From a virus (taxonomy: Duplodnaviria > Heunggongvirae > Uroviricota > Caudoviricetes): a DNA stretch of 16,261 bases. The notes beneath the pieces are model-generated. The model searched no databases. It saw only the letters and a list, made by a program, of their open reading frames with translations, and was not told where the DNA came from. Where the stretch lies: IMG/VR virus record IMGVR_UViG_2529292919_000026. One strand, written 5' to 3'. The translations under genes and the position numbers were made by a program. Shown one piece after another: positions 307-16,261 of this stretch (position 1 is its first letter; each line of letters starts with the position of its first letter).

Positions 307-318
307 CGGAGACTGAAA

Positions 319-1152: not shown

Positions 1153-1324
1153 GCCAACAGGAACACCACAACCACAAAAACGCTACAAAGATGCCCACGG
1201 AGCACTCGTTACTGTCGAAAGCGTGTCTCACAACCGAGTGACGTTTTATCGCGACGGGTATCAATCGCCATGCGTACAACCGCTGGCGCGTTTCATGAAG
1301 GAGTTCGCGGAGGTTAACCAATGA
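1145..1324 (+). CDS. small hypothetical protein (59 aa)
   Basis: ATG at 1145 overlaps the stop codon of the antirepressor (ATGTCTAA), and the stop overlaps the next gene's start (ATGA at 1321-1324), typical translational coupling. The track's longer 1058 start lies inside the upstream gene. Confidence 0.45.
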   Translation: MSKPTGTPQPQKRYKDAHGALVTVESVSHNRVTFYRDGYQSPCVQPLARFMKEFAEVNQ

Positions 1325-2388
1325 TACCCGTCCAGAAGAAGACATTTTCACTGGCTGGTATGTCGCCAAAATCCAGCAATATGACGGCAAAGTCAGGCAT
1401 TAATACAGCAGATACAAGCAAAGTTTATCATTTGCTGGTGGTCGGAACGGATGCCTTAACCATACCAGAAATCTCGGGCGATGATATTAGCATTGAGAAG
1501 GTCAGCGGCTGCGCCAGAAAATTTCTGGTCGTAGATGATGTCTTCCGCTCGCGTAGTGACTCCACAAAAACCTTCATCCGCGCGCGTGACGTTAACGAAA
1601 TGAGCGCGATGTACTGTGCATCTGGTGCTTCCAATAGCGAGTTTTCGGAGTCCATAAAAAAGAGCTTGCCGTTATGCGGCAACACGGTTTATGGTTATAA
1701 GGCACCTCATAAAACGGGTGCCGGGATTGGCGTCCTGGTAAATCGAATGGCGACATATGACGCGCCGAGCGTCTTTTTTTATGTCGTAGGTCTGACTCAC
1801 CCATTTTTTGGGCGTTGGTGTATAATCCAGCGCCTTTGTCAATCAATGGTGGCTCAGGCAGGGGCTTCTTCGGAAGCGCCGGTATCCATTCGAGCCGGTT
1901 ACGCCAACCCTGTCTGGGCTACCACCAGCGAAATTGGCGTTTCCGGTGGTAGCGTTACATGCTATCGAATGGAGGCTGCCACATGCTGGCTACTACCCCT
2001 ACCCAAAAACCGCAATTTATCTGGATTATCGCCGCAGTTCGCCGCGATTGCCCGACAATTACCGCCAGAATTCATCATATTGCTGCCGAGTCTGAACGCG
2101 ATGCTCGCCGTTCTCTGGTGCGCGATCACGTCTGCTTTTTTGCTGGTCGTATCCGCATGGAGGTGGCACATGATTAAAACCTACGATGTGCATATGGATC
2201 CCCTCGAACGCACAAGCCAGATCATCACACTGACAGAAGTGATTAACGACATTCTGGTGAGCAACTCTCCCTCACGAGACGAAAGACTGAAGGCGTTACT
2301 CGCGATATTGGATCTCGCCGTTCGTGACGTTCATTTCCTGCTGGAAGGTGGCGAAATGCCAGTAAAAACGGGGGCAACCAATGAATAA
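1321..2388 (+). CDS. hypothetical protein (355 aa)
   Basis: 355 codons without a stop in ~50% GC DNA is unlikely by chance. Start is coupled to the preceding gene by ATGA overlap. No recognisable domain. Contains a strong internal GGAGG-N5-ATG at 2160-2172 (see findings). Confidence 0.5.
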
Positions 2389-2575
2389 CTCAATTAATAC
2401 CCCTCGCCTTACGTCCGCACTTCAATTAATCGAGCAAGCAGCGGCTGTCCTGGTTGCTGTCAGTCTTTCGGCTGAAGAAATGGACGCTACTGATGTCGTG
2501 GATGCGATTAAAGCGTGCTCATCTTTGGTTAACGATGCCCGTGCAGAGCTGGTAATTCTTGGGGGTGAAAAATGA
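2381..2575 (+). CDS. small hypothetical protein (64 aa)
   Basis: ATG overlaps the stop of the upstream gene (ATGAATAA), and its stop overlaps the next start (ATGA at 2572-2575). Confidence 0.55.
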   Translation: MNNSINTPRLTSALQLIEQAAAVLVAVSLSAEEMDATDVVDAIKACSSLVNDARAELVILGGEK

Positions 2576-2835
2576 ATATCAACTTAATTTATCGTCATCC
2601 GTGTGAGCTGGAAATTGAATCATTGCTGAGCCGTGAAGAACCATATCCAGACACATTCACTCTTGCAGATCGCACGACTGAACGGCTTACCAGAGCGCGC
2701 ACAGGTCTGGTTCATGTGATGAATGAGATTCTTCCATCGGTGGGAGGGGAACAGGCGACAGTAATCACTAGCTGGCTACAAAAAGTTACCTCTCTGATAG
2801 ATATCAGTTTAATCGATGCGGAGAGTGCGAAATGA
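2572..2835 (+). CDS. small hypothetical protein (87 aa)
   Basis: Translationally coupled on both sides by ATGA overlaps (2572-2575 and 2832-2835). Confidence 0.55.
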   Translation: MNINLIYRHPCELEIESLLSREEPYPDTFTLADRTTERLTRARTGLVHVMNEILPSVGGEQATVITSWLQKVTSLIDISLIDAESAK

Positions 2836-3053
2836 CCAACATCCAGCTCATTGAAGCGCAATGTCGCATCGAACAGGTTCAGACTGTTTTAGGGTTCTGG
2901 CTTGAAGGGGCCAGCCCCAGCAACAGAGACAAGTTAATGATTGGCGCGGTTATGTCACTGCTCAATGGCGTACCAGAAGCTATTCAGGAAGCAGACGAAT
3001 TGTTGGGCAAATATGAGTTACAGAATCATTCAGGCGAGGCGAAACATGAATAA
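2832..3053 (+). CDS. small hypothetical protein (73 aa)
   Basis: Coupled to neighbours. Stop overlaps the next start in ATGAATAA at 3047-3053. Confidence 0.55.
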   Translation: MTNIQLIEAQCRIEQVQTVLGFWLEGASPSNRDKLMIGAVMSLLNGVPEAIQEADELLGKYELQNHSGEAKHE

Positions 3054-3648
3054 TTTCTTAACTTTCCAGGCAGAAGCAACGCCTGACGGCGTAAACATCA
3101 TGCACCGCAGCAACGATGGCATGACAGAACGCGTTGAGACCGTCTCATATATTGATGCCGTAAATCGTCTGGATGCCGGGGATTATGACGATAAACCAGA
3201 TGAAGGTATGTCAATACATCTCGCTATTGCCGATGGCGGCAACCAGGGATATTTCGATTACACATCACAGCATAACGTCATTATGTGGAGATGGTTGATC
3301 GCAACAGTATTCATGCTGGAAATGAGAGAGGAAAACGGCACTGTCAGCATCATTGATGATACTGGCAATCCTTCCGAAGTGGCTGTTTATTCCAACGGCA
3401 TCGTCGCCATGCCGCTGTATCCAGTAGCAGAGCGCCTCGCTATGGCAAACAACATTGAGGGCGCGATGATAGAACGTTTTGGCATCGAGTCTGGCACAGA
3501 ACGCTCCATCATTTTCTACAGAGCCATGATGGATGTGGAACAAGGAGCACTGACTCCATTTGGTCGTGAAACGCTTGCTGAACTTCACAACAGCTTTATA
3601 GCTGAACTGAATGAAAACGGCATGCCATCGGAACCAGTGACGCACTGA
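3047..3648 (+). CDS. hypothetical protein (200 aa)
   Basis: ATG at 3047 overlaps the upstream stop. The track ORF extends to 2941, but that start lies inside the upstream gene, so the coupled ATG at 3047 is preferred. Acidic protein with no recognisable motif. Confidence 0.55.
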
Positions 3649-3658
3649 GGATGGAACC

Positions 3659-3742
3659 ATGATTACTAAAAATTTCCGACTGAATGCGCTGGCAAATAAG
3701 TATGCGTCAGCACTGTATAACCACATTACCTCCACCAGCGGC
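3659..3742 (+). pseudogene. N-terminal fragment (28 codons) of a small gene split by IS insertion
   Basis: GAGGA Shine-Dalgarno 7 nt upstream of ATG 3659. Reading frame MITKNFRLNALANKYASALYNHITSTSG runs into the IS left end. After removing the IS and one copy of the duplication the frame continues exactly into 5301-5558. Confidence 0.7.
3734..3742. repeat. left copy of 9-bp target-site duplication ACCAGCGGC
   Basis: Identical to 5292-5300. The last C is shared with the first base of the IS terminal repeat, so the junction is ambiguous by 1 nt. Confidence 0.75.
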
Positions 3743-3760
3743 TGTCTCTTATACACAAAT
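3742..3760 (+). repeat. IS left terminal inverted repeat (outside-end-like)
   Basis: CTGTCTCTTATACACAAAT, 17/19 match to Tn5 OE. Confidence 0.8.
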
Positions 3761-3906
3761 CCCCACCCGGGGATTTGTGATGTCTGTCAGTCTGCTTTAG
3801 GGGGACTCTTTCCATCCGGTAGTTTCCTTCCTCCCCGGCAGCGATTTTTTGAACTTTTTCCTCACCCGTTGATCTTCTCTTATATTTCATTTTCTTCGGG
3901 TCTGTT

Positions 3907-5280
3907 ATGGTACTTTCTGATTGTTATTCATGGGCTAACGAGCAGTTTGGACATGCCCGTCTCGGTGATCCGCGTCGTACACGACGCCTTGTGTCACTGG
4001 CCTCTTCTCTCGCTCAGCATGCAGGTCTTTCTATTGTGAAATCATCCCAGTCCACTGCTCAGGTTGAAGGTGCGTACCGCCTGATACGTAACCCGTCTGT
4101 GTCCCCGCAAGCCATTGCCGAAGCCGGATTTACCGCCACTGTAAGGGCATGTGAGGCTCATCCGCTGCTCCTCGCGCTGGAAGACACCACCACCATTAAC
4201 TTCAGTCACAGTACGGCATCTGATGACCTGGGGAATACCACCACTAACCCGAAGACGCGCGGGCTGCTGGCTCACTCTGTCCTGATGTACGCCCCCGACA
4301 GCGCCCTGCCAGTCGGTCTTATCGAACAGCAGCGCTGGAGTCGTGCCACGGACACCTACGGTGTTAAGCACCAGCGAAAAGAACGTCCCTATGAAGAAAA
4401 AGAAAGTTACCGCTGGCAGCAGGCTTCGGAGCGCATGGCCGAACGGCTGGGGGAGATACAGAAACGGGTAATCACTGTCTGTGACCGGGAAGCGGATATC
4501 TGGCATTACCTGCATTATAAAGTCAGCCACGGGCAGCGCTTCGTGGTGCGTGCAGCACAGAATCGCCGGCTGGAAGAAGCACCCGGCAAGCTCTTCGAAC
4601 TGCCGGAAGTCCTGGCAACCGCGGGAAGCCACACGCTGAATGTGATGCAAAAAGGCGGGCGGGCAGCCCGCCAGGCCCGGATGTTCATCAGTTACAGCGA
4701 AGTCAGCATAAAAAATCCCGACAACAGCGGCCAGGCGCTCCCGCTCACGTATGTCTGTTGCCGGGAGCAGGCAGAGGACGGCGCCTGCTGGCATCTGCTG
4801 ACGTCAGAAAAAGTGGCGAGTGCCGCCGATGCGCGACGTATCGTCAGCCATTACGAGCGACGCTGGCTGATAGAGGAATACCACAAGGCGTGGAAAAGTG
4901 GTGGTACATGTGTGGAATCGCTGCGAATGCAGACCCGGGATAACCTCGAGCGCATGGTGGTTATCAAGGCGTTTATCGCGGTGCGGGTGCTGGGCCTGCG
5001 GCAGGGCGGTATCAGTGAAGAAACACAAAATGACAGCTGTGAGAAAATACTGACGCCGACAGAGTGGAAACTGCTGTGGGTTAAGCTGGAAGGAAAACCG
5101 CTTCCGTCACAGATGCCGACACTGAAATGGGCCTGTCTGAAACTGGCGAAACTGGGGCGATGGCATGACAGCAAACGCACCGGTCGCCCCGGTTGGGTAG
5201 TCATGTGGGATGGCTGGTTCAGACTTCAGGATATGGTTGAGGGTTACCTGGTGATGAAGTCTCTTGATCAGGAGATCTGA
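3907..5280 (+). CDS. tnp: IS4-family DDE transposase, Tn5 Tnp-like (457 aa)
   Basis: Clear collinear similarity to Tn5 transposase: GDPRRT.RLV, EGAYR.IRNP.VS, L(A/L)(I/L)EDTT, VCDREADI, RFVVR, RW.IEE(F/Y)HKAWK(T/S)G and DNLERMV...A(V/I)R.L.LR blocks, including the catalytic D, D, E positions. Stop codon lies inside the right terminal repeat. Confidence 0.85.
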   Translation: MVLSDCYSWANEQFGHARLGDPRRTRRLVSLASSLAQHAGLSIVKSSQSTAQVEGAYRLIRNPSVSPQAIAEAGFTATVRACEAHPLLLALEDTTTINFSHSTASDDLGNTTTNPKTRGLLAHSVLMYAPDSALPVGLIEQQRWSRATDTYGVKHQRKERPYEEKESYRWQQASERMAERLGEIQKRVITVCDREADIWHYLHYKVSHGQRFVVRAAQNRRLEEAPGKLFELPEVLATAGSHTLNVMQKGGRAARQARMFISYSEVSIKNPDNSGQALPLTYVCCREQAEDGACWHLLTSEKVASAADARRIVSHYERRWLIEEYHKAWKSGGTCVESLRMQTRDNLERMVVIKAFIAVRVLGLRQGGISEETQNDSCEKILTPTEWKLLWVKLEGKPLPSQMPTLKWACLKLAKLGRWHDSKRTGRPGWVVMWDGWFRLQDMVEGYLVMKSLDQEI

Positions 5281-5291
5281 TCAAGAGACAG
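5273..5291 (-). repeat. IS right terminal inverted repeat (inside-end-type)
   Basis: Reverse complement is CTGTCTCTTGATCAGATCT, 19/19 with Tn5 IE. Confidence 0.85.
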
Positions 5292-5558
5292 ACCAGCGGC
5301 GGGGACTATTTCATGATTGATGCGGACGGAGAGGCCGTACGTGTGGAAATCGTCAATGGAGTAAAAGGCGTTCGCAGCCTGATCGATAGTTACGCACTGG
5401 CAGCCATGAAAGTGTTCTACCCGCAGTGGGAAACCGTGGGGATCGAGCTTCTTGATCGTTGCGTCACTAAGGACAGATTGACTGACGTCGGGCGTGAGAT
5501 ATGGCAAAGCATGGTTAATGACATGGGCGCAACTGTAGCGGGAGGTTCTCATGCGTGA
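5292..5558 (+). pseudogene. C-terminal fragment of the IS-split gene (the 5313-5558 track ORF is its in-frame tail)
   Basis: Starts with the right copy of the duplication ACCAGCGGC (encoding T-S-G, the same three residues that end the N-terminal fragment). Frame continues G-D-Y-F-MIDADGEAV... to TGA 5556-5558. Reconstructed intact protein would be about 113 aa. Confidence 0.7.
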
Positions 5559-5922
5559 AAATGCAGAAATGGCGCTTAGCTCCGCAATCGGAGAGCAGGT
5601 GGCAAAGATTGCTGGTGCTGTGTGGATTCATAACCTTCATTCTACTGGTGAAGAGAAAATGGCAATTCAGACGCCAGAGGGACGCACTATTACTACATCT
5701 CTGAAGCCGTCAGATGTTTGTGATCTGATTTGCGCATTCATGTACCCAGCAATGAGGACTGTCCACGGCGATAAGTGGAAACTTGCGACAACCGCTGAAT
5801 TTGATATGTGGCTAAACAATGATGGCATGCTGACTGATTACGGAATAACCAAGTGGCAGATGCTGGTTAGCCATATCGCAAACGCTATAGACCACGTGGG
5901 GTACGGTGATGCGAAACATTGA
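5551..5922 (+). CDS. hypothetical protein (123 aa)
   Basis: GGAGG at 5541-5545, five nt before ATG 5551. Start overlaps the stop of the split gene (ATGCGTGA). Its 3' end overlaps the primase start. Confidence 0.55.
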   Translation: MRENAEMALSSAIGEQVAKIAGAVWIHNLHSTGEEKMAIQTPEGRTITTSLKPSDVCDLICAFMYPAMRTVHGDKWKLATTAEFDMWLNNDGMLTDYGITKWQMLVSHIANAIDHVGYGDAKH

Positions 5923-8665
5923 TCTTATCCGTCAGGTTATCAGTGCGTCTGAAAACAACTGGCCTCATGTGCTGGGCTGCCTGAACATAAATGTCCCTGA
6001 CTCTCCGCGCCGTCATGCTCCCTGCCCTGCATGTGGGGGCAAAGATCGATTCCGGTTCGATGACAACGGGCGCGGTAGCTTCATCTGTAATCAGTGCGGC
6101 GCTGGTGATGGGCTGGATTTAATTAAACGCGTAAATAACTGCGACACAACAGAGGCGGCGCTGCTTGCCGCTGATGTTCTGGGTATTGATTACCGGACAA
6201 CGGAAACACCAGAAGCCACCAGCCAGAAACGGGAACAACTGGAAACCGAGCGCCAGCAACGCGAACAGGAGCGCCTGAAAAGGGCGGAGAAGGACGAACA
6301 ACAAAGACGGGATACGTTTTCCCGTCAGTTTGATGACATGCGCAGAAAGGCTGTAAACGGCAAATCTGATTATCTGGTTGCGAAAGGGGTAGGTGATTTT
6401 ACATTCCCCGTGTTGCCCGATGGATCTCTGTTGCTGGCGCTGGTGGATAAATCCGGCGCAGTCACAGCAGCACAGACTATTACCTCACATGGTGAAAAAA
6501 GACTCCTGACAGGTTCAGCAAAGCGGGGGGCATATCACGCCATAAACGCACCAGAAACAACACAGAGCATCTTAATCGCAGAAGGGCTGGCAACGGCATT
6601 ATCTGCCCATTTAATTCGTCCAGAGGCGCTGACAGTGGCGGCGATTGATGCCGGGAACCTGTTATATGTCGCCCAGGTACTGCGGGATAAATTTCCTTCA
6701 GCACAAATCATCATTGCTGCGGATAACGACCACAGCGAAGGAAGACAAAACACGGGGAGAATAGCAGCAGAAAAAGCAGCTTTATCTGTTTCTGGATGGG
6801 TGGCATTACCCCCGACAGGTCACAAAGCAGACTGGAATGATTACCACCAAAAACACGGCATTAAATGCGCCACAGAAGCGTTCAATAAGTCAATGTACCA
6901 ACCACAGGGTAATGGCGTGAAACAGGAGCCACAGACCATTGAGGGAAGCGATTTTAAGGTTATGGATACCGACCCACTGAAACCAAGAATAGAAAGCCGC
7001 GAGGATGGTATTTATTGGGTATCTCCGAGAGCTGACAGCCAGAGTGGAGAAATCATCAATAACGAAAGCTGGTTATGTTCTCCGTTAAGCGTTATCGGTA
7101 CTGGCAGAGACGATAAAGACCAGTATCTCATTCTTCGCTGGCTGTCGTTTGGTTCTGAAACGCCGACAACCGCTGCCATTCCACTGGCTGATATTGGTGA
7201 ACGTGAAGGATGGCGCACACTTAAAGCTGGTGGGGTAAATGTCACGACCAAAAGCAGCCTCAGAGCAATACTGGCAGACTGGCTACAACGCAGTGGCTCT
7301 CGTGAATTGTGGCGTGTTGCTCATGCCACTGGCTGGCAATGCGGAGCGTACATCATGCCTGATGGGGAAATCATCGGAACACCTGAAAATCCTGTGCTGT
7401 TCAGCGGGAGAAGCTCAGCCGCAGCCGGATATACCGTCTCAGGGAGCGCGCAAAGCTGGCGTGATAACGTGGCGCGTCTGGCCTTTGGTAACTATTCAAT
7501 GATGACCGGGATCGGCGCAGCACTGGCAGCACCATTGATTGGGCTGGTGGGCGCTGACGGGTTCGGCATTCATTTCTATGAGCAGTCGAGCGCAGGTAAG
7601 ACCACCACGGCAAACGTGGCGAGCAGCTTATACGGCAACCCTGATTTACTGCGGCTGACGTGGTACGGAACCGCGCTGGGGCTGGCAAATGAGGCCGCCG
7701 CCCACAATGACGGACTAATGCCGCTTGATGAAGTTGGTCAGGGCGCTGATCCTGTCAGCGTTTCACAGTCTGCCTATGCGTTATTTAACGGTGTAGGGAA
7801 ACTGCAAGGCGCTAAAGATGGTGGAAACCGGGATCTAAAACGCTGGCGTACAGTGGCAATCAGCACCGGAGAAATGGATTTAGAAACATTTATCGCTACT
7901 TCCGGGCGAAAAACCAAAGCCGGGCAACTGGTGCGACTGCTGAATATTCCGTTGAGTAAAGCAGTACGCTTTCACGATTACCAGAACGGAAAACAGCACG
8001 CAGACGCACTGAAAGACGCTTACCAGCATCACCATGGCGCAGCCGGGCGTGAGTGGATTAAATGGCTGGCAGACCACCAGCAACAGGCTATTAAAACTGT
8101 TCGTGATTGCGAAAGCAGATGGAGAAGCCTGATCCCACCCGATTATGGTGAGCAGGTTCACCGTGTAGCCGCGCGATTTGCCATTCTGGAGGCCGCATTG
8201 TTGTTAGGCGAGGTTGTAACAGGCTGGGATGCTCAGACATGCCGTGATGCGATACAGCACAGCTATAACGCATGGTTGCGCGAGTTCGGCACAGGTAACA
8301 AAGAGCATCAGCAGATTATTGAACAAACGGAGGCATTTCTTAATGCCTATGGGCTTAGCCGTTTTGCACCATTTCCATACAGCCCGGCAGATTTGCCCAT
8401 CAAAGATTTAGCCGGATACCGTCAGCGTGGAGAACATGACGAAAGCCCAATGATTTTCTACACATTCCCGGCCACATTTGAAAAGGAGATCGCATGTGGT
8501 TTCAACGCAAAACAGTTTGCTGAAGTGTTGAAAAAAGCCGGGATGCTAACCCCACCAAACAGCGGTCGTGGATACCAAAGAAAATCACCACGTATTCAGG
8601 GACGACAAATAAACGTTTATGTACTCAATTACCAGCCAGGAGATTATAACTCATCTGAAGAATGA
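5909..8665 (+). CDS. primase, zinc-ribbon + Toprim + DUF927/P4-alpha-like NTP-binding domain (about 918 aa)
   Basis: N-terminal CPACGGKDRFRF...FICNQCG zinc ribbon; Toprim-like acidic motifs (ILIAEGLATA, IIIAADNDHSEG); P-loop-like EQSSAGKTT near residue 555. Immediately followed by an iteron array. ATG at 5909 is preferred over the GTG at 5906 reported by the track. Confidence 0.8.
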   Translation: MRNIDLIRQVISASENNWPHVLGCLNINVPDSPRRHAPCPACGGKDRFRFDDNGRGSFICNQCGAGDGLDLIKRVNNCDTTEAALLAADVLGIDYRTTETPEATSQKREQLETERQQREQERLKRAEKDEQQRRDTFSRQFDDMRRKAVNGKSDYLVAKGVGDFTFPVLPDGSLLLALVDKSGAVTAAQTITSHGEKRLLTGSAKRGAYHAINAPETTQSILIAEGLATALSAHLIRPEALTVAAIDAGNLLYVAQVLRDKFPSAQIIIAADNDHSEGRQNTGRIAAEKAALSVSGWVALPPTGHKADWNDYHQKHGIKCATEAFNKSMYQPQGNGVKQEPQTIEGSDFKVMDTDPLKPRIESREDGIYWVSPRADSQSGEIINNESWLCSPLSVIGTGRDDKDQYLILRWLSFGSETPTTAAIPLADIGEREGWRTLKAGGVNVTTKSSLRAILADWLQRSGSRELWRVAHATGWQCGAYIMPDGEIIGTPENPVLFSGRSSAAAGYTVSGSAQSWRDNVARLAFGNYSMMTGIGAALAAPLIGLVGADGFGIHFYEQSSAGKTTTANVASSLYGNPDLLRLTWYGTALGLANEAAAHNDGLMPLDEVGQGADPVSVSQSAYALFNGVGKLQGAKDGGNRDLKRWRTVAISTGEMDLETFIATSGRKTKAGQLVRLLNIPLSKAVRFHDYQNGKQHADALKDAYQHHHGAAGREWIKWLADHQQQAIKTVRDCESRWRSLIPPDYGEQVHRVAARFAILEAALLLGEVVTGWDAQTCRDAIQHSYNAWLREFGTGNKEHQQIIEQTEAFLNAYGLSRFAPFPYSPADLPIKDLAGYRQRGEHDESPMIFYTFPATFEKEIACGFNAKQFAEVLKKAGMLTPPNSGRGYQRKSPRIQGRQINVYVLNYQPGDYNSSEE

Positions 8666-8684
8666 GCTTCTTCATGTGCGTAGA

Positions 8685-8730
8685 AAAGGTGTTGGTTCAG
8701 TTGGTTCAGTTGGTTCAATTTGTAAAGAGT
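8685..8730 (+). repeat. 46-bp segment perfectly inverted-repeated at 15899-15944
   Basis: AAAAGGTGTTGGTTCAGTTGGTTCAGTTGGTTCAATTTGTAAAGAG is the exact reverse complement of 15899-15944. Confidence 0.9.
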
Positions 8731-8802
8731 ATTGTTTTATAAGGATTTTATTCTTTTTATTGAACCAACACTGAACCAACAACACGGTATTTTGAACCAA
8801 CA
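8692..8802. promoter_or_regulatory. iteron array, candidate replication origin (copy A)
   Basis: Three tandem GTTGGTTCA 9-mers (8692-8718), an AT-rich ~43-bp spacer, then three spaced inverted copies TGAACCAAC (8762-8770, 8773-8781, 8794-8802). Sits directly 3' of the primase gene. Confidence 0.65.
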
Positions 8803-8862
8803 CAATGTGACTGAATTGATGCGCACAACACCTGGCTGGCATCAGAGAGTGTTTTACGAGAC

Positions 8863-8883
8863 TTTCGTAAAATCCTGTGTACA
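8863..8883. promoter_or_regulatory. palindromic operator-like site TTTTACGA-N5-TCGTAAAA
   Basis: 8-bp perfect inverted arms seen directly in sequence. Confidence 0.4.
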
Positions 8884-8905
8884 AGGGCGTGACGTTTTTG
8901 AAAGT

Positions 8906-8922
8906 GAGCACTACGAAATTTT
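8906..8922. promoter_or_regulatory. palindromic operator-like site CTACGAAA-T-TTTCGTAG
   Basis: 17-bp near-perfect palindrome sharing the TTTCGTA half-site with the site 25 bp upstream. Confidence 0.4.
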
Positions 8923-9122
8923 CGTAGTTCAAAAAACAGCCTCTGAGAAGTTGTTATGCCTGTTCAGCAAACCATCCGCATAGCTGATCGCGAATCAAAT
9001 TACCAATGGAGCCAGAATCAAGGGCAGAACTGAAAAGCGCCTGCCGTGAAGAGTAATGCGATACCATAAATATAGTTTTTAGAGTCCATAAAAAACCTGT
9101 CAAAACCTGACACACAGAACGA

Positions 9123-9154
9123 TGCCACCAGCTACTGAGCGGTGGCATTTTTTT
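9123..9154 (+). terminator. rho-independent terminator (orphan, no upstream + strand CDS)
   Basis: Stem TGCCACC/GGTGGCA with 11-nt loop, followed by seven T residues (9148-9154). Confidence 0.55.
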
Positions 9155-9249
9155 GTGCTATTTGTTTCATATTTTGCAATTACGATGATGAATATTGCGA
9201 TTTGTGAAACTATAATAACTGTTGTTTTATACAGTTCTAAGGGGGCGTT

Positions 9250-9411
9250 ATGGCTATTTCAGTAAATCCGGTATTGATAAGTGAGAAGCAAATGGAAGCG
9301 ATAAAGAAAATTCAGGAAGAGCAGCGTAAAAAATCAGGAATTGGAGTAGCGCCAACTCTGCATGAAATTGCACGAGGGTTAATAGATAAGGCGCTGGCAG
9401 GCTGTATGTGA
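9250..9411 (+). CDS. small hypothetical protein (53 aa), below the track's length cut-off
   Basis: AAGGGGG Shine-Dalgarno 6 nt upstream of ATG 9250; TATAAT hexamer at 9211-9216. Sequence MAISVNPVLISEKQMEAIKKIQEEQRKKSGIGVAPTLHEIARGLIDKALAGCM, possibly a small DNA-binding protein. Confidence 0.45.
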   Translation: MAISVNPVLISEKQMEAIKKIQEEQRKKSGIGVAPTLHEIARGLIDKALAGCM

Positions 9412-9427
9412 AAATGGATGGCATCGC

Positions 9428-9889
9428 ATGGAACTAAAATTTATTGATAACCCTGTGCGATTACAGGCCTTTCTTAACGAGCCAGGCAATACCGAAAATA
9501 TTGTTGAGCCGGGGCACACGTACTACATCAAGCCTGATGCGGTATATCTCGGCATCTACGAAGGATTAGTGCTGGCTGGCGTTCATGAAGTGCGTAACTT
9601 CTGGCATAGCGTTGTTGAATGCCATGCGGTGTACGACCCCGGATTCCGTGGTGAATATGCACTGCAAGGGCATCGATTATTCTGCAAATGGCTTCTCGAA
9701 AACTCACCATTCCTTAACAGCATCACCATGGTTCCTGACACCACCAAATACGGACGGGCAATTATCCGTTTGCTTGGCGCTACCCGTGTTGGTCACCTTG
9801 ATGATGCTTATATCAGATGTGGTAAACCCGTCGGCGTAACGCTTTATCAGTTAACTCGGCAACAATATAAGGAATTCAGCGAATGTTAA
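9428..9889 (+). CDS. protein at the gene-14 position of a P22-like ejection-protein cluster (153 aa)
   Basis: Assigned by position and size only: it directly precedes three coupled ejection-protein-like genes, and its stop overlaps the next start. Confidence 0.35.
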   Translation: MELKFIDNPVRLQAFLNEPGNTENIVEPGHTYYIKPDAVYLGIYEGLVLAGVHEVRNFWHSVVECHAVYDPGFRGEYALQGHRLFCKWLLENSPFLNSITMVPDTTKYGRAIIRLLGATRVGHLDDAYIRCGKPVGVTLYQLTRQQYKEFSEC

Positions 9890-10560
9890 TTACCCATATA
9901 GCTCATAAACATCTCAATCGTGCCGTATACGAAAAAGGCGGTGATGGTGGTGCCTCTAAAGCTCAGGCGAAGGCCCAGCAGCAGGCAATTGATTTGCAGC
10001 GCGAGCAGTGGAATACGGTGATGAATAATCTCAAGCCGTATGCAGAAGTCGGATTGCCTGCTTTACAACAACTGCAAGGACTGATGACTCTGGAAGGGCA
10101 GAATAAAGCCGCGAATGATTTCTTTGGTTCTGGTTTATATAAAACACAGGCAGATCAGGCCCGTTATCAGAACCTTGTCTCAGCAGAAGCTACCGGGGGG
10201 CTTGGCTCAACAGCTACCAGTAACCAGTTATCTTCCATTGCGCCCATGCTTTATAACAATTGGCTCAGTGGGCAAATGCAAAATTATGGAAACCTGCTAA
10301 ATGTCGGGATGAATGCGGCATCAGGGCAGGCAACGGCAGGGCAAAACTACGCCAATAATACCGGACAACTCTTGCAGGGGCTTGGCGCTATTCGTGCAGG
10401 TCAGGCGCAGCAGCCATCCAGTCTTGCGCGTGGTATTGGTGGGGCAGCATCAGGCGCTTTAGCGGGTGCGCAACTTGGTTCCGTTGTTCCTGGAATAGGA
10501 ACTGCGGCCGGCGCTATTGGTGGTGGGCTTATTGGTCTTGTTGGGGGGCTTGGATTCTAA
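9883..10560 (+). CDS. P22 gp7-like DNA ejection (internal virion) protein (225 aa)
   Basis: Size close to P22 gp7 (about 229 aa from memory); EKGGDGG segment near the N terminus; Gln/Ala/Gly-rich low-complexity body; glycine-zipper hydrophobic C terminus GGLIGLVGGLGF. First of three coupled genes in P22 order. Confidence 0.55.
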   Translation: MLITHIAHKHLNRAVYEKGGDGGASKAQAKAQQQAIDLQREQWNTVMNNLKPYAEVGLPALQQLQGLMTLEGQNKAANDFFGSGLYKTQADQARYQNLVSAEATGGLGSTATSNQLSSIAPMLYNNWLSGQMQNYGNLLNVGMNAASGQATAGQNYANNTGQLLQGLGAIRAGQAQQPSSLARGIGGAASGALAGAQLGSVVPGIGTAAGAIGGGLIGLVGGLGF

Positions 10561-11981
10561 TGGCGACATGGCAACTTGGCGGGCTGCCTAGCATGGCACC
10601 GCAAAATGATAATGCTCCTCGTTCTTCCGTTCCTCAGCCTGTGCAGTATCAGCAGCAGCCAAACGTAGGTTTAATGGCGCTACAGGGGCTAAGAGGCGTT
10701 GCTGAGATTAATCAGCAGGCACGTCAACAACAGCGTAAATCAGAGTTTCAGAAAGCATATGCCGGGGCTTTTGAGTCTGGAGACAGAAACAAAATGCGCA
10801 GTCTTATTTCTGAGTATCCAGAAGAATTTGAAAGCGTTCAGAAAGGGATGGGCTTTATTGATGACGACCAGAGAAATTCTATTGGTCATCTTGCGACTAG
10901 TGCTCAAATCGCATCTTCGCTCGGAACTGGGGCATTTGGAAAATTCATAGCAGATAACGAAGATGAAATGCGTCGCTTGGGAATTTCTCCTGAGTCTGTT
11001 GCCGAAATGCATGTTAATGATCCACAGGGATTCCAGCGGCTTGCTGGTAGTATGGCACTGTTTTCTCTCGGTCATGAGAAGTATTTCGATATCAAAGATC
11101 AAATGGAAGGTCGGGATATTGAGCGAGGCAGGCTGGCAGAGACAATCCGCAGCAATCAGGCTGGCGAAGCACTTCAGGCGAGAGGGCAGGATATTAGCCG
11201 AGCAAATGCGTTAACGTCAGCATATGCACCAACAGCAGCAATGCAGAATTACAATCAGTACGCTCAAATGTTAAAGGCGGATCCAGAGGGGGCGGCGGCA
11301 TTTGCGGCAGCGGCTGGAATTAATACAAACGCCAAAAAATTAATGAGTGTTAGAGAAAACGATGATGGCACTGTCACAAAATACTACACAGACGGAAGTG
11401 AAGAGCAGGGAAAACTAAACCAGCCAATATCTGGAGATGGGTTTCGTCCAATAGCTTTGCCAACAGCCCAAAAGATCATGGAAAAGTCGCCAGAAGGGGC
11501 TAAAAAAGCTGCTGGATTTGCATACAGGGTTAGGGATGCTCTTGATTCAATAGATACACTGAAAGACCAGCTTAGCCCACAGCGAGTGGCGATCATTAAT
11601 AATGCTTTGGGTAATGGGACGCTGGCTAACTTAACGCTCAGCCCAACAGAGCAGCAATACGTTGTTAATGCTAATGACGCAATAATGGCAATACTCCGTC
11701 AGGAAACAGGGGCAGCTATCGTACCTGCTGAAATGTCAAAATATTATCAAATGTATTTCCCTCAGCCTGGCGACTCCACAAAAACCATTGATACCAAGCG
11801 CCGGAAGATGGAAAACCAGTTCAATTCGCTGAAAGCTGCTTCTGGTCGAGCTTATGATGCTTTGCGGGTTATTTCAGCAGTTGACAGAGGAACGTCTTCT
11901 TCGTCGCAGACATTGCCGCAATCTGAGCAGGTATCACAGCCAGCAGCCAGCAGTAACTTTTCTTCACTATGGGGTGATTAA
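10560..11981 (+). CDS. P22 gp20-like DNA ejection protein (473 aa)
   Basis: Size close to P22 gp20 (about 471 aa from memory). Start overlaps the upstream stop (TAATGG) and the stop overlaps the next start. Confidence 0.55.
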   Translation: MATWQLGGLPSMAPQNDNAPRSSVPQPVQYQQQPNVGLMALQGLRGVAEINQQARQQQRKSEFQKAYAGAFESGDRNKMRSLISEYPEEFESVQKGMGFIDDDQRNSIGHLATSAQIASSLGTGAFGKFIADNEDEMRRLGISPESVAEMHVNDPQGFQRLAGSMALFSLGHEKYFDIKDQMEGRDIERGRLAETIRSNQAGEALQARGQDISRANALTSAYAPTAAMQNYNQYAQMLKADPEGAAAFAAAAGINTNAKKLMSVRENDDGTVTKYYTDGSEEQGKLNQPISGDGFRPIALPTAQKIMEKSPEGAKKAAGFAYRVRDALDSIDTLKDQLSPQRVAIINNALGNGTLANLTLSPTEQQYVVNANDAIMAILRQETGAAIVPAEMSKYYQMYFPQPGDSTKTIDTKRRKMENQFNSLKAASGRAYDALRVISAVDRGTSSSSQTLPQSEQVSQPAASSNFSSLWGD

Positions 11982-14086
11982 TGGCTAAAGCATGGAAAGA
12001 TGTTATCGCCTCTCCACAGTATCAGGCGTTAGCACCAGAACAAAAAGCGCAGGCTCAGGAGCAATACTTCAATGAAGTCGTTGCCCCGCAAGCCGGAGAA
12101 AGTGTAGAGCAGGCTAAGCAGGCTTTTTATGCTGCCTATCCACTACCATCAACGAATGAAATAGACCGATCCCAATCAGCAACTCAAAATATTCAACATA
12201 CATCATCTGATAATTCTCTTGCGTCAGGGTATGCAAAGTTAGCTACTCAGCAAAGAGAGGGGCTTGAGCGTTCAGCAGAACAGGGAGCCAGTCTTGGGGC
12301 TGCGATGCGCGATGCTATAACAGGCGAAAGCCGAATGACTTCAGAGATGGAGAGACTGCAAAATGTCGCCTCTGCCCCAGAATTGAACTCACTAAGCATG
12401 GATGCCCTAAAGGCTGGATGGTCCCAACTTTTCGGCTCTGACGCGTCTCAGGAAAAGATTCTTCAGGGAATGGGGGCGACATTAAGGCAGGATGAGAAGG
12501 GGAATACTATCGTTTCTCTGCCATCAGGTGATTATGCCCTGAACAAGCCGGGTTTATCACCGCAAGACCTGACTTCGTTTCTTGCTAATGCGTTGGCGTT
12601 TACACCAGCGGGCAGGGCTGGAACGGTGCTTGGTGCCATAGGAAAATCAGCAGCTACAGATTTAGCACTACAGGGAGCCACCAGCCTTGCTGGTGGAGAA
12701 GATATTGATCCGTTACAAACGGTAATTTCTGCTGGCATTGGTGGTATTGGTAAGGGGCTGGAAAATACAGCGAGTGCGGTTTCGAGGGCTGTTCGTGGTG
12801 ATATGTCGCCTGAAGCAAAGGCTGCTGTCGACTTTGCATCGGAAAGAAATCTGCCGTTAATGACCAGTGACATGCTGAAAGATAAAACCTTTATGCAGAG
12901 TCAGGCTCAGACATTAGGCGAAAGAGTTCCTTTTTTTGGAACCGGTAAGAATCGGCTGAATCAACAACAAGCACGAGAAAATTTAGTCAGAACATTTAGC
13001 GATGGTCTGGGTGGCATTTCTGATAAACAGCTTTATGAATCTGCGACTAAAGGGCAACAAAAATTCATTGAGGCAGCAGGAAAGCGATATAACCGCATAA
13101 TTGACGCTATGGGGGATACCCCTGTCGATCTCTCAAACACGGTAAAAGCTATCGACAATCAGATTGCCGTGTTAAGCCGCCCGGGCAAATCTCAGGATAG
13201 AGCCGCGGTAAAAGTCTTGCAGCAATTTAAAGACGATATCACCAGCGGACCAAATGACCTGCGCCTGGCGAGGGAAAACAGAACCGATCTTCGAAAGCGA
13301 TTTATTGCGTCATCTGACACTGTTGATAAAGATACGCTCCAGAAAGCCAGCGATATTATCTACAAGGCATATACGGCGGATATGAAAAAAGCCGTAGCCA
13401 AAAATCTTGGAGCAGACGAAGCCATTAATATGGCAAGGGTTGATCGCTCATGGTCTAAATTCAATGACATGATGGGAAGAACGCGCGTTCAAAAGGCAAT
13501 AGCCAGCGGCAAGGCCACGCCTGAGGATGTAACAAAACTCGTTTTTAGCCAAAGCCCATCAGAACGTTCTCAGCTTTACAGGCTTCTGGATGACAATGGT
13601 AGGCAAAACGCACGAGCAGCCATAGTTCAGAATGCTGTAGATAAGGCGACTGATCCGTCTGGAAATATCAGTGTTGAGAAGTTTATTAATGCGTTACACC
13701 GGAACAGGAAGCAATCAGCAACTTTCTTTAAAGGCGTACATGGGAAGGAACTGGACGGCGTTATTAAATACCTCAACGATACAAGACACGCGGCAAAAGC
13801 GAACGTTCAAAACTTAAATGGTCAGCAGCTTTATGGATTGTTAGTTGGTGGTGGCATCATAAACGCAGCAGTATTAGCGGGGATGCTAAAAACGGCTGCG
13901 TTTGTTGTTCCTGCTGCTGGTGCCGTAGGCGGAGCAGCGAAGGCATACGAAACCCCTGTTATACGAAATGCCTTGTTACGTCTGGCAAATACGCCAAAAG
14001 GTAGCACAGCATATGACAGAGCGATCAGTACGGTCACACAATCGCTCACCAGAGTCGCACAGGCATCACAAAAAGAAGCTCAATAA
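11981..14086 (+). CDS. P22 gp16-like DNA ejection protein (701 aa)
   Basis: Third coupled gene; large Ala/Gln-rich protein with hydrophobic Gly/Ala-rich segment near the C terminus (GGGIINAAVLAGMLKTAAFVVPAAGAVGGAA). Longer than P22 gp16 (about 609 aa from memory). Confidence 0.5.
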   Translation: MAKAWKDVIASPQYQALAPEQKAQAQEQYFNEVVAPQAGESVEQAKQAFYAAYPLPSTNEIDRSQSATQNIQHTSSDNSLASGYAKLATQQREGLERSAEQGASLGAAMRDAITGESRMTSEMERLQNVASAPELNSLSMDALKAGWSQLFGSDASQEKILQGMGATLRQDEKGNTIVSLPSGDYALNKPGLSPQDLTSFLANALAFTPAGRAGTVLGAIGKSAATDLALQGATSLAGGEDIDPLQTVISAGIGGIGKGLENTASAVSRAVRGDMSPEAKAAVDFASERNLPLMTSDMLKDKTFMQSQAQTLGERVPFFGTGKNRLNQQQARENLVRTFSDGLGGISDKQLYESATKGQQKFIEAAGKRYNRIIDAMGDTPVDLSNTVKAIDNQIAVLSRPGKSQDRAAVKVLQQFKDDITSGPNDLRLARENRTDLRKRFIASSDTVDKDTLQKASDIIYKAYTADMKKAVAKNLGADEAINMARVDRSWSKFNDMMGRTRVQKAIASGKATPEDVTKLVFSQSPSERSQLYRLLDDNGRQNARAAIVQNAVDKATDPSGNISVEKFINALHRNRKQSATFFKGVHGKELDGVIKYLNDTRHAAKANVQNLNGQQLYGLLVGGGIINAAVLAGMLKTAAFVVPAAGAVGGAAKAYETPVIRNALLRLANTPKGSTAYDRAISTVTQSLTRVAQASQKEAQ

Positions 14087-14090
14087 CTGG

Positions 14091-14113
14091 TTAGCCATGG
14101 ATGGCTAATTTTT
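14091..14113 (+). terminator. intrinsic terminator between convergent genes
   Basis: Perfect inverted repeat TTAGCCAT-GG-ATGGCTAA followed by TTTTT. The stop codon of the minus-strand membrane-protein gene lies inside the stem. Confidence 0.55.
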
Positions 14114-14524
14114 GTTCTTTGCTCTCATCCATAGGTAAAGAAGGGAAAGAACAAGACAAAAAACAGAGAATAGATAACCTACCTCATATGGTGCGCCAAA
14201 AAAATTAGCCATTGATACGGGCAAAAAAGCTGAAGCGATCAAAATTGAAAGGCAAAAAATAAGCCCAGTAATATAGTTTATTAAATTCTTAAATGAGAAA
14301 CGTTTTGCTTGATTTACGGTCTTAACGAACGATCGCTTAACGACGGATAAAAGCAAATAGATGGCGACAGTTGCTAATGCCCCTTTCCACCAGTCTGGAT
14401 ATAGTTTTGCGACAATCAGACCAAGGAAAACCATGATGACAGCCTGAGCATTCACACCAACCCTCCCTTTAGCTTTGTTTAGAATGGCAATCATCATATA
14501 TCCAAGACATGGCATTTGGTACAT
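14105..14524 (-). CDS. small multi-pass inner-membrane protein at the sieA position (superinfection-exclusion-like)
   Basis: Several hydrophobic helices (VIMVFLGLIVAKL, ALATVAIYLLLSVV, ITGLIFCLSILIASAFL, LFSVFCLVLSLLYLW). Convergent with and immediately after the gp16-like gene, as sieA is in P22-like phages. Start uncertain: a strong AAAGGGAGGG sits 5 nt before an in-frame GTG at 14455. Confidence 0.5.
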   Translation of the reverse strand: MYQMPCLGYMMIAILNKAKGRVGVNAQAVIMVFLGLIVAKLYPDWWKGALATVAIYLLLSVVKRSFVKTVNQAKRFSFKNLINYITGLIFCLSILIASAFLPVSMANFFGAPYEVGYLFSVFCLVLSLLYLWMRAKNKN

Positions 14525-14564
14525 AGCTTGGGTCGGGATTTCAAATCCGATCCCCGTTGATGGG

Positions 14565-14960
14565 GCCGTTACAGTACGCGCATATCCTCTTTATGTGAAA
14601 CAGGAAGATTTTTCTGATATCACTGCCACAGCAAAACACCAATTTCGTGACCAGTACGCGCGCGAGGGGTATCAGTTGCAAAAAATTTTGCAACTGCGTC
14701 CGACCAGTACGCACACGATGGCGGGGAGCACCATAAAACTGTTCTCTACATAAGACAGAGTGGTGGTGATGTGTTGATTATCGGCGTATATGCGCACAGG
14801 ACGCGCTATGACGATGTTTTATGCGGGTACACCAATCACATGTATCTGGTGTGATCAATCGCGTTACATGACATCTCATGTTGTGCTGGTGATTATCACG
14901 ACGTTCTGAATCTGGCCTTTGCCTGATATTTTGCGACAAGTACGCGCGCGTAGCATCGAC
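14565..14960. repeat. cluster of short repeats: AGTACGCGCGCG-type motifs with adjacent TTTTGCGAC-type motifs
   Basis: AGTACGC(G/A)C(G/A)CG at 14572, 14653, 14705 and 14939; TTTTGC(G/A)AC at 14405, 14686 and 14929; perfect 12-bp palindrome TACGCGCGCGTA at 14941-14952. Confidence 0.6.
14673..14696. promoter_or_regulatory. palindromic operator-like site CAGTTGCAAAA-AA-TTTTGCAACTG
   Basis: 11-bp perfect inverted arms seen directly in sequence, in the noncoding region upstream of the minus-strand membrane-protein gene. Confidence 0.45.
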
Positions 14961-14978
14961 AGCATACACATTGGATAT

Positions 14979-15179
14979 TCATTTTGTGACCAATGCGATA
15001 AGTAGCGGGATAAGAATTGATAAAATCAACAGGACGATGATCCACTTTTGATTCTCGTCCATCTTATCTGCTAGGCGACGCTCCATTCCGTGCATATCAC
15101 CGCGAATGGCAATCATCTCATTGCGAACATCCGAGAAGTGGTTGGCTTGATGTTCAATGTGTGGCGTTCTGCCTTTCAT
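14979..15179 (-). CDS. small protein with C-terminal transmembrane helix (66 aa)
   Basis: GGTGAGGA Shine-Dalgarno 7 nt upstream of ATG on the minus strand. C-terminal WIIVLLILSILIPLLIALV hydrophobic segment. Confidence 0.5.
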   Translation of the reverse strand: MKGRTPHIEHQANHFSDVRNEMIAIRGDMHGMERRLADKMDENQKWIIVLLILSILIPLLIALVTK

Positions 15180-15258
15180 GTCTGATCCTCACCTATCGTC
15201 ACCACCTGATGGTGTATAAAGGTATTAGCCCAAGCAGCTTTCCAATGGGCACTCATGT

Positions 15259-15714
15259 TTATACGCTGACCTTACAATCAATCACCGCTTTTAACTTTTC
15301 AGCATTGCTTCCCTGACGCTTCCACGCGCTGTAAATATCTTTATCCCACGCTTTACCAGCTTTTGTTTGATAGCCTGCTTCATTGATCCGTTCAGCTATC
15401 ACACGCCCATTATCAAATCCCTGTTGGATGGTATCGGCAATGATCTTTATAACTGCCGTTTCGTTATATGGTTTTGGTGGGATGTTCGGCTTTCCGGCAA
15501 TAAGCGACGCAGCGGCTTTTTCCATGCGCTCCACCAGCCCAAGCATTCGTGAATCAATAGACTTTTCCGGCTGCCCCAGCTTCATGCGAATCGCATCAAC
15601 AAGCCAAGAGGTTTTATCTCCTCCAGAAGCGAGAACAGACCGATTAAACTCATCCTGCAATTCAGATGGGATGCGGAACGCGATCAGATTAGATTTGCTC
15701 ATTGCAAAGACCAT
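15259..15714 (-). CDS. ribbon-helix-helix (Arc/Mnt/CopG-type) DNA-binding regulator with C-terminal extension
   Basis: N-terminal SNLIAFRIPSELQDEFNRSVLASGGDKTSWLVDAIRMKL fits the beta-strand/helix/helix pattern of RHH repressors (compare the FNLRWP strand of P22 Arc/Mnt). True start may be the second ATG (15702). Confidence 0.5.
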   Translation of the reverse strand: MVFAMSKSNLIAFRIPSELQDEFNRSVLASGGDKTSWLVDAIRMKLGQPEKSIDSRMLGLVERMEKAAASLIAGKPNIPPKPYNETAVIKIIADTIQQGFDNGRVIAERINEAGYQTKAGKAWDKDIYSAWKRQGSNAEKLKAVIDCKVSV

Positions 15715-15816
15715 ATCAGTGAGTAATATCCATACAGTATACCACTGTATAACACTGTTATACGCTCAAATATCAGCCAGAAAATAACAGACCAATCACA
15801 AATCTATCGCTGTGTT

Positions 15817-15937
15817 GTTGGTTCAGAGCTGGGCTGTGTTGGTTCAAAATGAGTTGATGTTGGTTCAATATTTTAGAAAAAACACAATAAAAACAACGCT
15901 CTTTACAAATTGAACCAACTGAACCAACTGAACCAAC
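15817..15937. promoter_or_regulatory. iteron array, candidate replication origin (copy B, inverted relative to copy A)
   Basis: Three spaced GTTGGTTCA 9-mers (15817-15825, 15838-15846, 15859-15867), an AT-rich spacer, then three tandem TGAACCAAC (15911-15937). Confidence 0.6.
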
Positions 15938-15944
15938 ACCTTTT
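15899..15944 (-). repeat. second copy of the 46-bp perfect inverted repeat
   Basis: Exact reverse complement of 8685-8730. Confidence 0.9.
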
Positions 15945-15973
15945 TGCTTATCTATATAATCTGAGAGGCAGAA

Positions 15974-16261
15974 ATGATAAAGGACAGGAAAGCTGAAGAG
16001 CTGGAGTCAAAAGGGCTATACCGGAGAGCTGCCGCACGATGGGCAGAAGTCATGATGCTGGCAGATGGCGATAAAGAACGTGAACATGCAGCAAACAGAC
16101 GCTCTGAATGTATCCGTAAGGCGGCACGCCCACCAGCAACTACAGACAGATTCGGAGATTTAAGACAGGCAGTTAAGCGGACTCATTCGGCTCTTGGTAT
16201 GGATGAGGAAGCGAGAGGGTACTTCAGGCGTTATCGCGATAAAGATTGCCAGAGACAGTAA
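15974..16261 (+). CDS. PerC-like small transcriptional regulator (95 aa)
   Basis: N-terminal KAEELESKGLYRRAAARWAEVM resembles the conserved N-terminal signature I recall for PerC/Pch-family activators found on prophages and P4-like islands. GAGAGG Shine-Dalgarno and TATAAT at 15955-15960 upstream. Recalled from memory, not searched. Confidence 0.45.
   Translation: MIKDRKAEELESKGLYRRAAARWAEVMMLADGDKEREHAANRRSECIRKAARPPATTDRFGDLRQAVKRTHSALGMDEEARGYFRRYRDKDCQRQ

Follow-up and report, generated by a model that had tools for sequence, protein, structure and literature searches.

A ribbon-helix-helix protein gene with a predicted operator in its own promoter, followed by phage-derived membrane cargo, in an EcCIMP1-like satellite

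Arc, Mnt, CopG, omega, the N-terminal domain of NikR and the RHH antitoxins are autoregulated ribbon-helix-helix (RHH) repressors, and they form the class with which we compare an unannotated protein of 147 amino acids (aa). It is encoded, next to a 66-aa membrane protein, in the virus record IMGVR_UViG_2529292919_000026 (Caudoviricetes), whose whole stretch of 16,261 nucleotides (nt) is called the window in the following. The explanation we favour, with a probability of about 0.6, is that the RHH gene regulates itself and is followed by membrane cargo of phage origin. By position, the locus recalls the immI region of phage P22. There, the divergent promoters Pmnt and Pant overlap, the Mnt operator lies in Pant and the arc-ant operon is adjacent. 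The leftward arm of immI, which is expressed in the lysogen, consists of mnt, orf59a, a terminator and sieA and is convergent on gene 16, and phage N7 carries mnt and three small open reading frames (ORFs) at the mnt place.

The second described system is EcCIMP1, a phage-inducible chromosomal island (PICI) of E. coli whose induction and transduction by the P22-like phage Kapi1 were shown experimentally (Pick et al., 2025; PMC11773190). Judged by its gene content, the window is an EcCIMP1-like PICI satellite, presumably with a P22-like helper. In E. coli strain 755, an island with yicC and dinD as flanking genes matches it at 100% and has the gene order integrase, AlpA-type helix-turn-helix (HTH) protein, AntA, DUF4222, ash, Icd-like, DUF927 primase, 53-aa protein and DUF2824, followed by three ejection-type proteins, three minus-strand hypothetical genes and PerC. 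A 42-kb locus with the whole island (L001) was annotated as the full element. The features of PICIs are present: an integrase, AlpA, a primase-type replication protein with an iteron origin, a specific integration site, a small size and no capsid or lysis genes. Iterons flanking an AT-rich core, as described for PICI origins (PMC6092414), are likewise seen in the window. The backbone is 96–99% identical to EcCIMP1 over window positions 1–3742 and 5292–10720. Both elements comprise AntA, DUF4222, ash, Icd, the DUF927 primase, the first origin, the 53-aa protein, DUF2824 and a gp7-like gene, and further the second origin with the start of perC (88%) and a non-coding repeat region at 14530–14959. 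The latter is kept at 96% identity. EcCIMP1 lacks both the RHH gene and the 66-aa gene and instead carries alpA_1 between repeat region and second origin (L062, reverse-complement coordinates 17903–19145). It also differs in its integrase and attachment site (tRNA-Thr, compared with yicC-dinD for the window) and in its gp20/gp16-type cargo.

The RHH protein and the promoter of its gene

The argument rests on the following features of the window:

15259..15702, minus strand: RHH gene, 147 aa; RHH domain, long helix and HTH-like C-terminal domain
15746..15764, no strand assigned: predicted operator, inverted repeat TGTATAAC-ACT-GTTATACg with the core GTATAAC-N3-GTTATAC at 15747–15763
15736..15744, minus strand: predicted extended -10 of the RHH promoter, TGgTATACT, 2 bases downstream of the operator, as read from the sequence
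15180..15258, minus strand: spacer between the RHH gene and the 66-aa gene, 79 nt; Shine-Dalgarno sequence GAGGA for the 66-aa gene; no terminator
14979..15179, minus strand: 66-aa gene for a predicted tail-anchored membrane protein; phrog_6324, E = 3e-15 (a family without annotated function)

An earlier sequence-only reading had described a minus-strand pair of 151 and 66 aa, and both ORFs are indeed present. The length of 151 aa (15259–15714, minus strand) is obtained if an upstream ATG serves as start. However, RefSeq starts the identical chromosomal copy at the fifth codon (M5, 15702; 147 aa), and MSKS... is the N-terminus of nearly all homologues. The true start is thus most likely M5 at 15702, giving 147 aa. 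The protein has 354 homologues across Enterobacterales, of about 143 aa and conserved over their full length, and its gene occurs in 361 of 5426 complete E. coli genomes (about 7%). Since the RHH homologues are conserved and the two genes are found in 361 and 176 E. coli genomes, respectively, both ORFs represent genes and not chance ORFs. A profile search of 1.84 billion representatives delivered a narrow family: 82 representatives, of which a large share are fragments, with no new architecture pointing to a function. DNA and protein searches of a phage collection with the RHH gene as query found nothing.

Structure prediction carries the assignment of the protein to the RHH class. While a first AlphaFold2 model, built from a shallow alignment, was confident for residues 75–147 only, a second model, for which six distant full-length relatives from an exhaustive profile search were added to the alignment, reached a mean predicted local distance difference test (pLDDT) score of 82 and showed RHH topology. 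In this model, residues 1–12 are extended and followed by helices at 13–26 and 30–41 (pLDDT 77–93), which corresponds to the beta-alpha-alpha arrangement of the RHH fold; a long helix (49–68) and a four-helix C-terminal domain (pLDDT about 90) complete the protein. The RHH fold that the sequence-only reading had proposed for the larger protein is thus borne out by the model. The hidden Markov model search that it had suggested gave a mixed result. Scans of the curated families (Pfam at E <= 0.1, PHROGs, NCBIfam and PADLOC) yielded no usable match to the 147-aa protein, apart from a weak one of its RHH region to phrog_30270, and one distant relative passed the cut-off of the RHH family TacA1 in Pfam (25.8 vs 21 bits). 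Six of 20 family members gave sub-threshold matches to Pfam RHH_1, and distant relatives matched CopG_antitoxin weakly. In a profile search against PDB sequences, five of the top 11 matches were RHH proteins, namely CopG-type proteins, MazE6, VapB26 and Mnt, all in register on residues 3–47 and each below threshold (E = 0.08–0.9 for the CopG-type proteins; E = 0.92 for 1mnt). On the strength of the model, we regard the 147-aa protein as a ribbon-helix-helix protein that would bind DNA.

Its C-terminal domain is both the best-conserved and the best-predicted part. From E. coli to Erwinia and Serratia, its GYQTKAGKAWDKDIYSAWKRQ motif hardly varies, and the domain stays invariant regardless of the neighbouring gene. 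Matches to Pfam Recombinase (best 17.3 bits vs a cut-off of 21.1) and HTH_62 (E = 0.018; cut-off 27 bits) are both sub-threshold. Compared with the 'Recombinase' domain of large serine recombinases and with HTH_62, the RHH protein lacks a catalytic domain, and structural matches stay at the level of a generic HTH. We consequently treat this likeness as only a lead.

The region upstream of the RHH gene follows one plan in 44 of 44 loci: two 7-bp subsites with a 3-bp gap lie directly upstream of a TGnTAnAnT extended -10 element, and the subsite pair ends 40–46 bp before the start codon (53 bp in one locus). The TGnTAnAnT element stands at the -10 position in all aligned upstream regions; a simple consensus scan missed the RHH promoter, and no good -35 was found. 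Two types of operator can be distinguished. Type A, GTATAAC-N3-GTTATAC, is the inverted form, carried by 23 loci with the window among them, and type B, GTCTTAC-N3-GTCTTAC, is the direct form, carried by 21 loci. Type A is always accompanied by the beta-strand N/T-L-[IV]-A-F-R, type B always by [LI]-S-V-T-F-R. Only 4 of the 147 positions (5, 6, 8 and 16) have disjoint residue sets between the classes, and positions 5, 6 and 8 fall in the predicted beta-strand. By our own hypergeometric estimate, chance would place at least three of four class positions in the 8-residue strand with a probability of about 5e-4.

A scan with up to 3 mismatches in 16 positions found one operator match in the window and one in L001, in both cases the RHH promoter. 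No site was detected near AntA in the window or L001, in the repeat region at 14530–14959, or near int or alpA in L001 and in other loci that include these genes. P22, N7, three P22-like prophages and EcCIMP1 gave chance-level 3-mismatch matches only, and a scan of IMG/VR returned satellite copies and unrelated palindromes but no link to a helper phage. Since the single recognisable site lies in the promoter of the RHH gene itself, autorepression by promoter occlusion appears to be the best-supported mechanism. The 147-aa protein would repress its own promoter by binding, probably as a dimer of dimers, to the two 7-bp subsites, which are spaced 10 bp apart (15747–15763). A second palindrome, ATACAGT-N5-ACTGTAT at window positions 15732–15750, which overlaps the -10 element of this promoter and may be a second operator, is conserved in elements of E. 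coli, Klebsiella and Pluralibacter, not in Providencia-type promoters.

The same scans bear on whether the RHH protein might be the missing master repressor of this Gram-negative PICI lineage, an analogue of Stl or Rpr that a helper protein would relieve at the C-terminal domain. Stl-type repressors are built from a DNA-binding N-terminus and a C-terminal domain, and the RHH protein, with its predicted DNA-binding N-terminus and conserved C-terminal domain, is Stl-like in this respect. Its gene is transcribed opposite to the AlpA-driven operon, and it has been stated to be unclear whether Gram-negative PICIs possess a global repressor at all (PMC6092414). However, the lack of an operator near int or alpA argues against such a role, as does the location of the gene at the opposite end from the regulatory region. 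Furthermore, EcCIMP1 is helper-inducible and AlpA-regulated without any RHH gene (PMC11773190). We therefore consider a master repressor very unlikely.

The cargo border and the 66-aa membrane protein gene

According to the sequence-only reading, the repressor had been captured in the cassette. This does not agree with the distribution of the gene. Homologues in Erwinia, Klebsiella and 49 further loci of other species always lie at the integrase-distal (int-distal) end of a satellite and are convergent with its primase, AlpA and integrase genes. This place is kept in more than 40 species, although the adjoining cargo is unrelated from locus to locus (a tape measure gene, E217_GP41, Imm_superinfect, or an S8 peptidase with an AAA protein). 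Among the E. coli elements, homology breaks at window positions 15292–15304, within the last codons at the 3' end of the RHH gene; downstream of the break follow Abi, or ImmA/IrrE with a hypothetical gene, or the 66-aa gene. The break indicates that the 3' end of the RHH gene borders a hotspot of defence and cargo genes. Because of the constant int-distal place next to unrelated cargo and of the break at the 3' end, the RHH gene is, as far as gene order and homology tell, a backbone gene of the satellite at the edge of this hotspot and no part of a captured cassette. In sister elements, the slot of the 66-aa gene (L011 11100–11963; L012 10964–11941) holds ImmA/IrrE with a hypothetical protein, or an Abi-family protein. 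In Klebsiella (L004–L006), an AlpA-like gene and then the RHH gene occupy the slot where EcCIMP1 has alpA_1.

In the 66-aa protein, a single segment, residues 42–66, is strongly hydrophobic and is predicted to form the C-terminal transmembrane helix that the sequence-only reading had noticed. Its family is narrow, and phrog_6324 was the sole usable match of the protein in Pfam, PHROGs, NCBIfam and PADLOC. The gene occurs in 176 of the complete E. coli genomes and adjoins the RHH gene in 168 of them, which is about half of the roughly 360 E. coli carriers of the RHH gene. In none of the 49 loci of other species, and in no other genus examined, was it found next to the RHH gene. A homologue of 111 aa is encoded in three P22-like prophages of E. 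coli (L007–L009), with 63% identity over the last 70 residues and the same C-terminal transmembrane segment. There it belongs to an operon of mnt and genes for proteins of 121, 111 and 107 aa, which is convergent on gene 16 and adjoins arc, ant and the tailspike gene. By this homology, we take the 66-aa gene to be optional cargo derived from the mnt operon of P22-like, helper-type phages.

Transcription of the RHH gene runs inward, opposing the operon driven by AlpA, and probably continues into the 66-aa gene. On our reading, the latter sits in the cargo hotspot that starts with the 3' end of the RHH gene, where sister elements carry Abi or ImmA/IrrE. Such read-through is plausible, since the 66-aa gene is preceded by a good Shine-Dalgarno sequence and neither a terminator nor a stable structure stands between it and the RHH gene. 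A site scan found no terminator between them, and the spacer folds no better than shuffled sequence (z = 0.62). RNA folding revealed neither a terminator nor a structured element, either in the gap between the two genes or downstream of them, and Rfam gave nothing real over 13900–16261. From its position, the 66-aa protein might serve the exclusion of P22-like phages or have another defence-type role. EcCIMP1 was reported to add to superinfection immunity by a mechanism not explained there (PMC11773190); however, EcCIMP1 lacks the 66-aa gene.

An RHH gene followed on the same strand by a gene for a small membrane protein, 79 nt apart and without a terminator, might also suggest a toxin-antitoxin or abortive-infection pair, with an RHH antitoxin and a small membrane toxin, and the weak matches of distant relatives to TacA1 and CopG_antitoxin fit this idea. 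However, the two genes do not form a fixed pair: the RHH loci of all other genera examined lack the 66-aa gene, as do about half of the E. coli carriers, and the 66-aa homologue is found in P22-like prophages that lack this RHH protein. In addition, PADLOC gave no matches, and the C-terminal domain is invariant whatever gene adjoins. A toxin-antitoxin pair is thus hardly credible.

The comparison with immI requires a similar distinction. In the window, the order of a gp16 gene (plus strand), a gene for a 139-aa protein with four transmembrane segments, the 66-aa gene and the RHH gene (all minus strand; 11981–15714) mirrors gp16, sieA, orf59a and mnt of P22 by position. Like Mnt, the regulator of the window has an RHH domain followed by a long helix. 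P22 Mnt, however, is an RHH protein that has about 83 aa and a tetramerisation helix at its C-terminus, whereas the 147 aa of the window's regulator include an additional C-terminal domain of about 70 aa. BLASTP of the RHH protein against Mnt of P22, N7 and prophages and against Arc gave no match, and hhalign against an Arc/Mnt alignment was in register but weak (E = 0.002, probability 13%). Moreover, the predicted operator belongs to the promoter of the RHH gene itself, where it precedes the extended -10 by 2 nt, and not to a divergent Pant; no arc-ant operon is adjacent, and in the divergent direction follows perC, at a distance of 260 bp and beyond an iteron cluster.

It had been suggested that a Mnt/Ant-type circuit is split across the element, with the RHH protein repressing the AntA antirepressor gene. 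The mirrored gene order, the 66-aa homologues in mnt operons of P22-like prophages and the weak register with Arc and Mnt would fit. However, the only operator-like site of the window and of L001 lies over the RHH gene's own promoter, where there is no divergent ant promoter. AntA is encoded 14 kb from the RHH gene, in another, AlpA-led operon that is tightly packed; since it starts only 12 nt after the preceding ORF, there is no room for a promoter of its own. It belongs to the Pfam AntA family and not to that of P22 Ant (P22_AR_N/C), and EcCIMP1 has an AntA that is 96% identical but no RHH gene. We thus judge a split circuit to be extremely improbable. Of the immI-like unit, the mirrored gene order and the homologue of the 66-aa protein in mnt operons stand, while the regulator is no orthologue of Mnt and there is no sign of an Ant circuit. 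From the sequences compared, the likeness of the unit to immI is one of position only, apart from a 66-aa gene that truly derives from immI.

Repeats, iterons and neighbouring genes

Around the two genes, further features of the window were delimited:

14530..14959, no strand assigned: non-coding repeat region with five CAGTACGCGC copies in a longer motif and a palindrome with 11-bp arms at 14673–14696
15813..15937, no strand assigned: second iteron cluster; AT-rich core flanked by 3 + 3 GTTGGTTCA/TGAACCAAC repeats; lies between RHH promoter and perC
14105..14524, minus strand: 139-aa gene, four predicted transmembrane segments; convergent on the gp16-like gene; in the position of P22 sieA
15974..16261, plus strand: perC-family gene, Pfam PerC E = 3e-33; divergent from the RHH gene
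319–1152: AntA gene, Pfam AntA, E = 2.7e-21

The RHH gene and the 66-aa gene lie between the repeat region (14530–14960) and the second iteron cluster (15813–15937), and here the coordinates agree with the earlier placement of the pair between a repeat region and a second copy of the origin. The CAGTACGCGC copies start at 14572, 14652, 14705, 14797 and 14938, and the longer motif reads TTTYGYGACMAGTACGCGCGCGAGG. This motif recurs 0.1–1.5 kb from the RHH gene in elements of Serratia, Tatumella, Photorhabdus, Xenorhabdus, Morganella and Providencia, where it is enriched about 3-fold. A GACCAGTACGCGCGCGAGG-type motif is conserved and about 3-fold enriched around the RHH gene across genera. The perfect palindrome at 14673–14696, CAGTTGCAAAA-TT-TTTTGCAACTG, has 11-bp arms and a 2-bp centre; as its loop is too tight, it looks like a protein-binding site rather than an RNA terminator.

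The second iteron cluster has the same structure as the one at 8690–8810, in inverted orientation; each is a complete structure of origin type, and together they bracket the whole cargo region and the RHH gene. This two-cluster layout recurs in many genera and in EcCIMP1 and recalls ori/crr of P4. The two clusters could form conserved flanks for cargo exchange. In 17 other loci, an iteron cluster lies 75–570 bp upstream of the RHH start, and in an element of Pantoea coffeiphila (L022 9712–11674) the unit of iteron cluster, RHH promoter and RHH gene is tandemly duplicated.

These observations bear on a further explanation, namely that the RHH protein acts mainly in trans through its HTH-like C-terminal domain, on the helper phage or on replication or packaging of the satellite at the second iteron cluster, with autoregulation merely setting its dose. 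The near-invariant and confidently predicted C-terminal domain with its GYQTKAGKAWDKDIYSAWKRQ motif speaks in favour, as do the iterons adjoining the RHH promoter, their duplication with the RHH gene in Pantoea and the enrichment of the GACCAGTACGCGCGCGAGG-type motif. In addition, the corresponding slot of EcCIMP1 is filled by the Xis-like alpA_1, which supports excision of the helper prophage and not of the island (PMC11773190). However, no partner or second DNA target was identified, the Recombinase and HTH_62 matches are all sub-threshold, the P22-like loci examined contain no operator-like site, and EcCIMP1 keeps the GTACGC repeat region while lacking the RHH gene. We consider a main role in trans to be unlikely, yet worth keeping in view. 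One might speculate further that the int-distal slot is a position for helper manipulation, where the C-terminal domain of the RHH-HTH protein acts on the helper or on the second origin and thereby couples quiescence, replication or packaging of the satellite to the helper. We hold this to be rather improbable; if true, it would provide Gram-negative PICIs with a regulator of repressor or sensor type, and whether they have one has been stated to be unclear.

The 139-aa gene shares a bidirectional hairpin (14089–14110) with gp16. Its product showed no significant similarity to P22 SieA, the type compared, nor to any family of Pfam, PHROGs, NCBIfam or PADLOC; three types of SieA are known (PMC10883804). 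By its position, the 139-aa protein is a candidate exclusion protein, carried beside the satellite's own ejection-protein genes. These genes are of P22 type (gp14/DUF2824, gp7, gp20 and gp16), so that DNA-delivery proteins of a helper are carried as satellite cargo at window positions 9428–14086 (plus strand), and gp20 and gp16 are exactly the targets of SieA (PMC10883804). In sister elements, gp20/gp16-type genes have other neighbours, and relatives in Klebsiella (L004–L006, 12511–15222) carry a tape-measure protein (TMP_3) instead. Since the backbone matches EcCIMP1, the ejection-protein genes are regular cargo of this satellite family and no one-off capture.

Two further observations concern the remainder of the window. 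An insertion at 3743–5291, within the ash/Icd region, contains a 457-aa transposase ORF (3907–5280), which on our own reading is probably IS4-like; it is absent from the otherwise identical island of strain 755 and from the EcCIMP1 alignment. The 53-aa protein (9250–9411, plus strand) is encoded by the first gene of the cargo operon. It is 98% identical in EcCIMP1 (one substitution) and kept at the same place in satellites of many genera with 44–77% identity. The guess that it might be a second RHH protein was not supported by hhalign against Arc/Mnt.

The favoured explanation and known systems

Several points weigh against self-regulation coupled to cargo. First, for the window protein itself, every single sequence-based match to an RHH family stays below threshold. 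Second, the two operator classes coincide with two clades, and the covariation with the beta-strand may thus reflect a single evolutionary event. Third, the gene 3' of the RHH gene is convergent in most relatives, and expression of cargo is for this reason not a general role of the RHH protein. Fourth, EcCIMP1 excises and is transduced without the RHH gene (PMC11773190). Finally, self-regulation alone gives the protein no evident purpose; its real output, presumably exerted through the C-terminal domain, is absent from our account. Nevertheless, we prefer an autoregulated RHH gene with phage-derived membrane cargo.

What is gained is, first, the removal of an attractive but wrong reading, in which a phage immI switch was split between the satellite and a captured cassette. 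Second, there is now a testable description of an unannotated protein family that lacks a Pfam or NCBIfam model and is carried by about 7% of the complete E. coli genomes and by many other Enterobacterales; it specifies a defined operator, the predicted promoter and three putative specificity residues, which can be swapped. Third, the RHH gene marks the border of a cargo hotspot in EcCIMP1-like satellites, comprising Abi, ImmA/IrrE and phage-derived membrane proteins, and is therefore useful for the mining of exclusion and defence genes. A search of the literature brought up no paper on RHH proteins in PICIs.

Compared with the known RHH repressors, the 147-aa protein shares the beta-alpha-alpha fold with putative specificity residues on the beta-strand, and its predicted operator consists, as in that class, of two short subsites one helical turn apart over the regulator's own promoter. 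The heptads of omega, too, are subsites in inverted or direct orientation. In contrast to known RHH repressors, the protein gives no threshold-level match to a Pfam RHH family, carries a fused recombinase-like HTH domain and is encoded at a fixed position in phage satellites. Taken together, the 147-aa protein is an unannotated case of a well-known kind, the RHH repressor that would regulate its own gene, in a recently described family of satellites.

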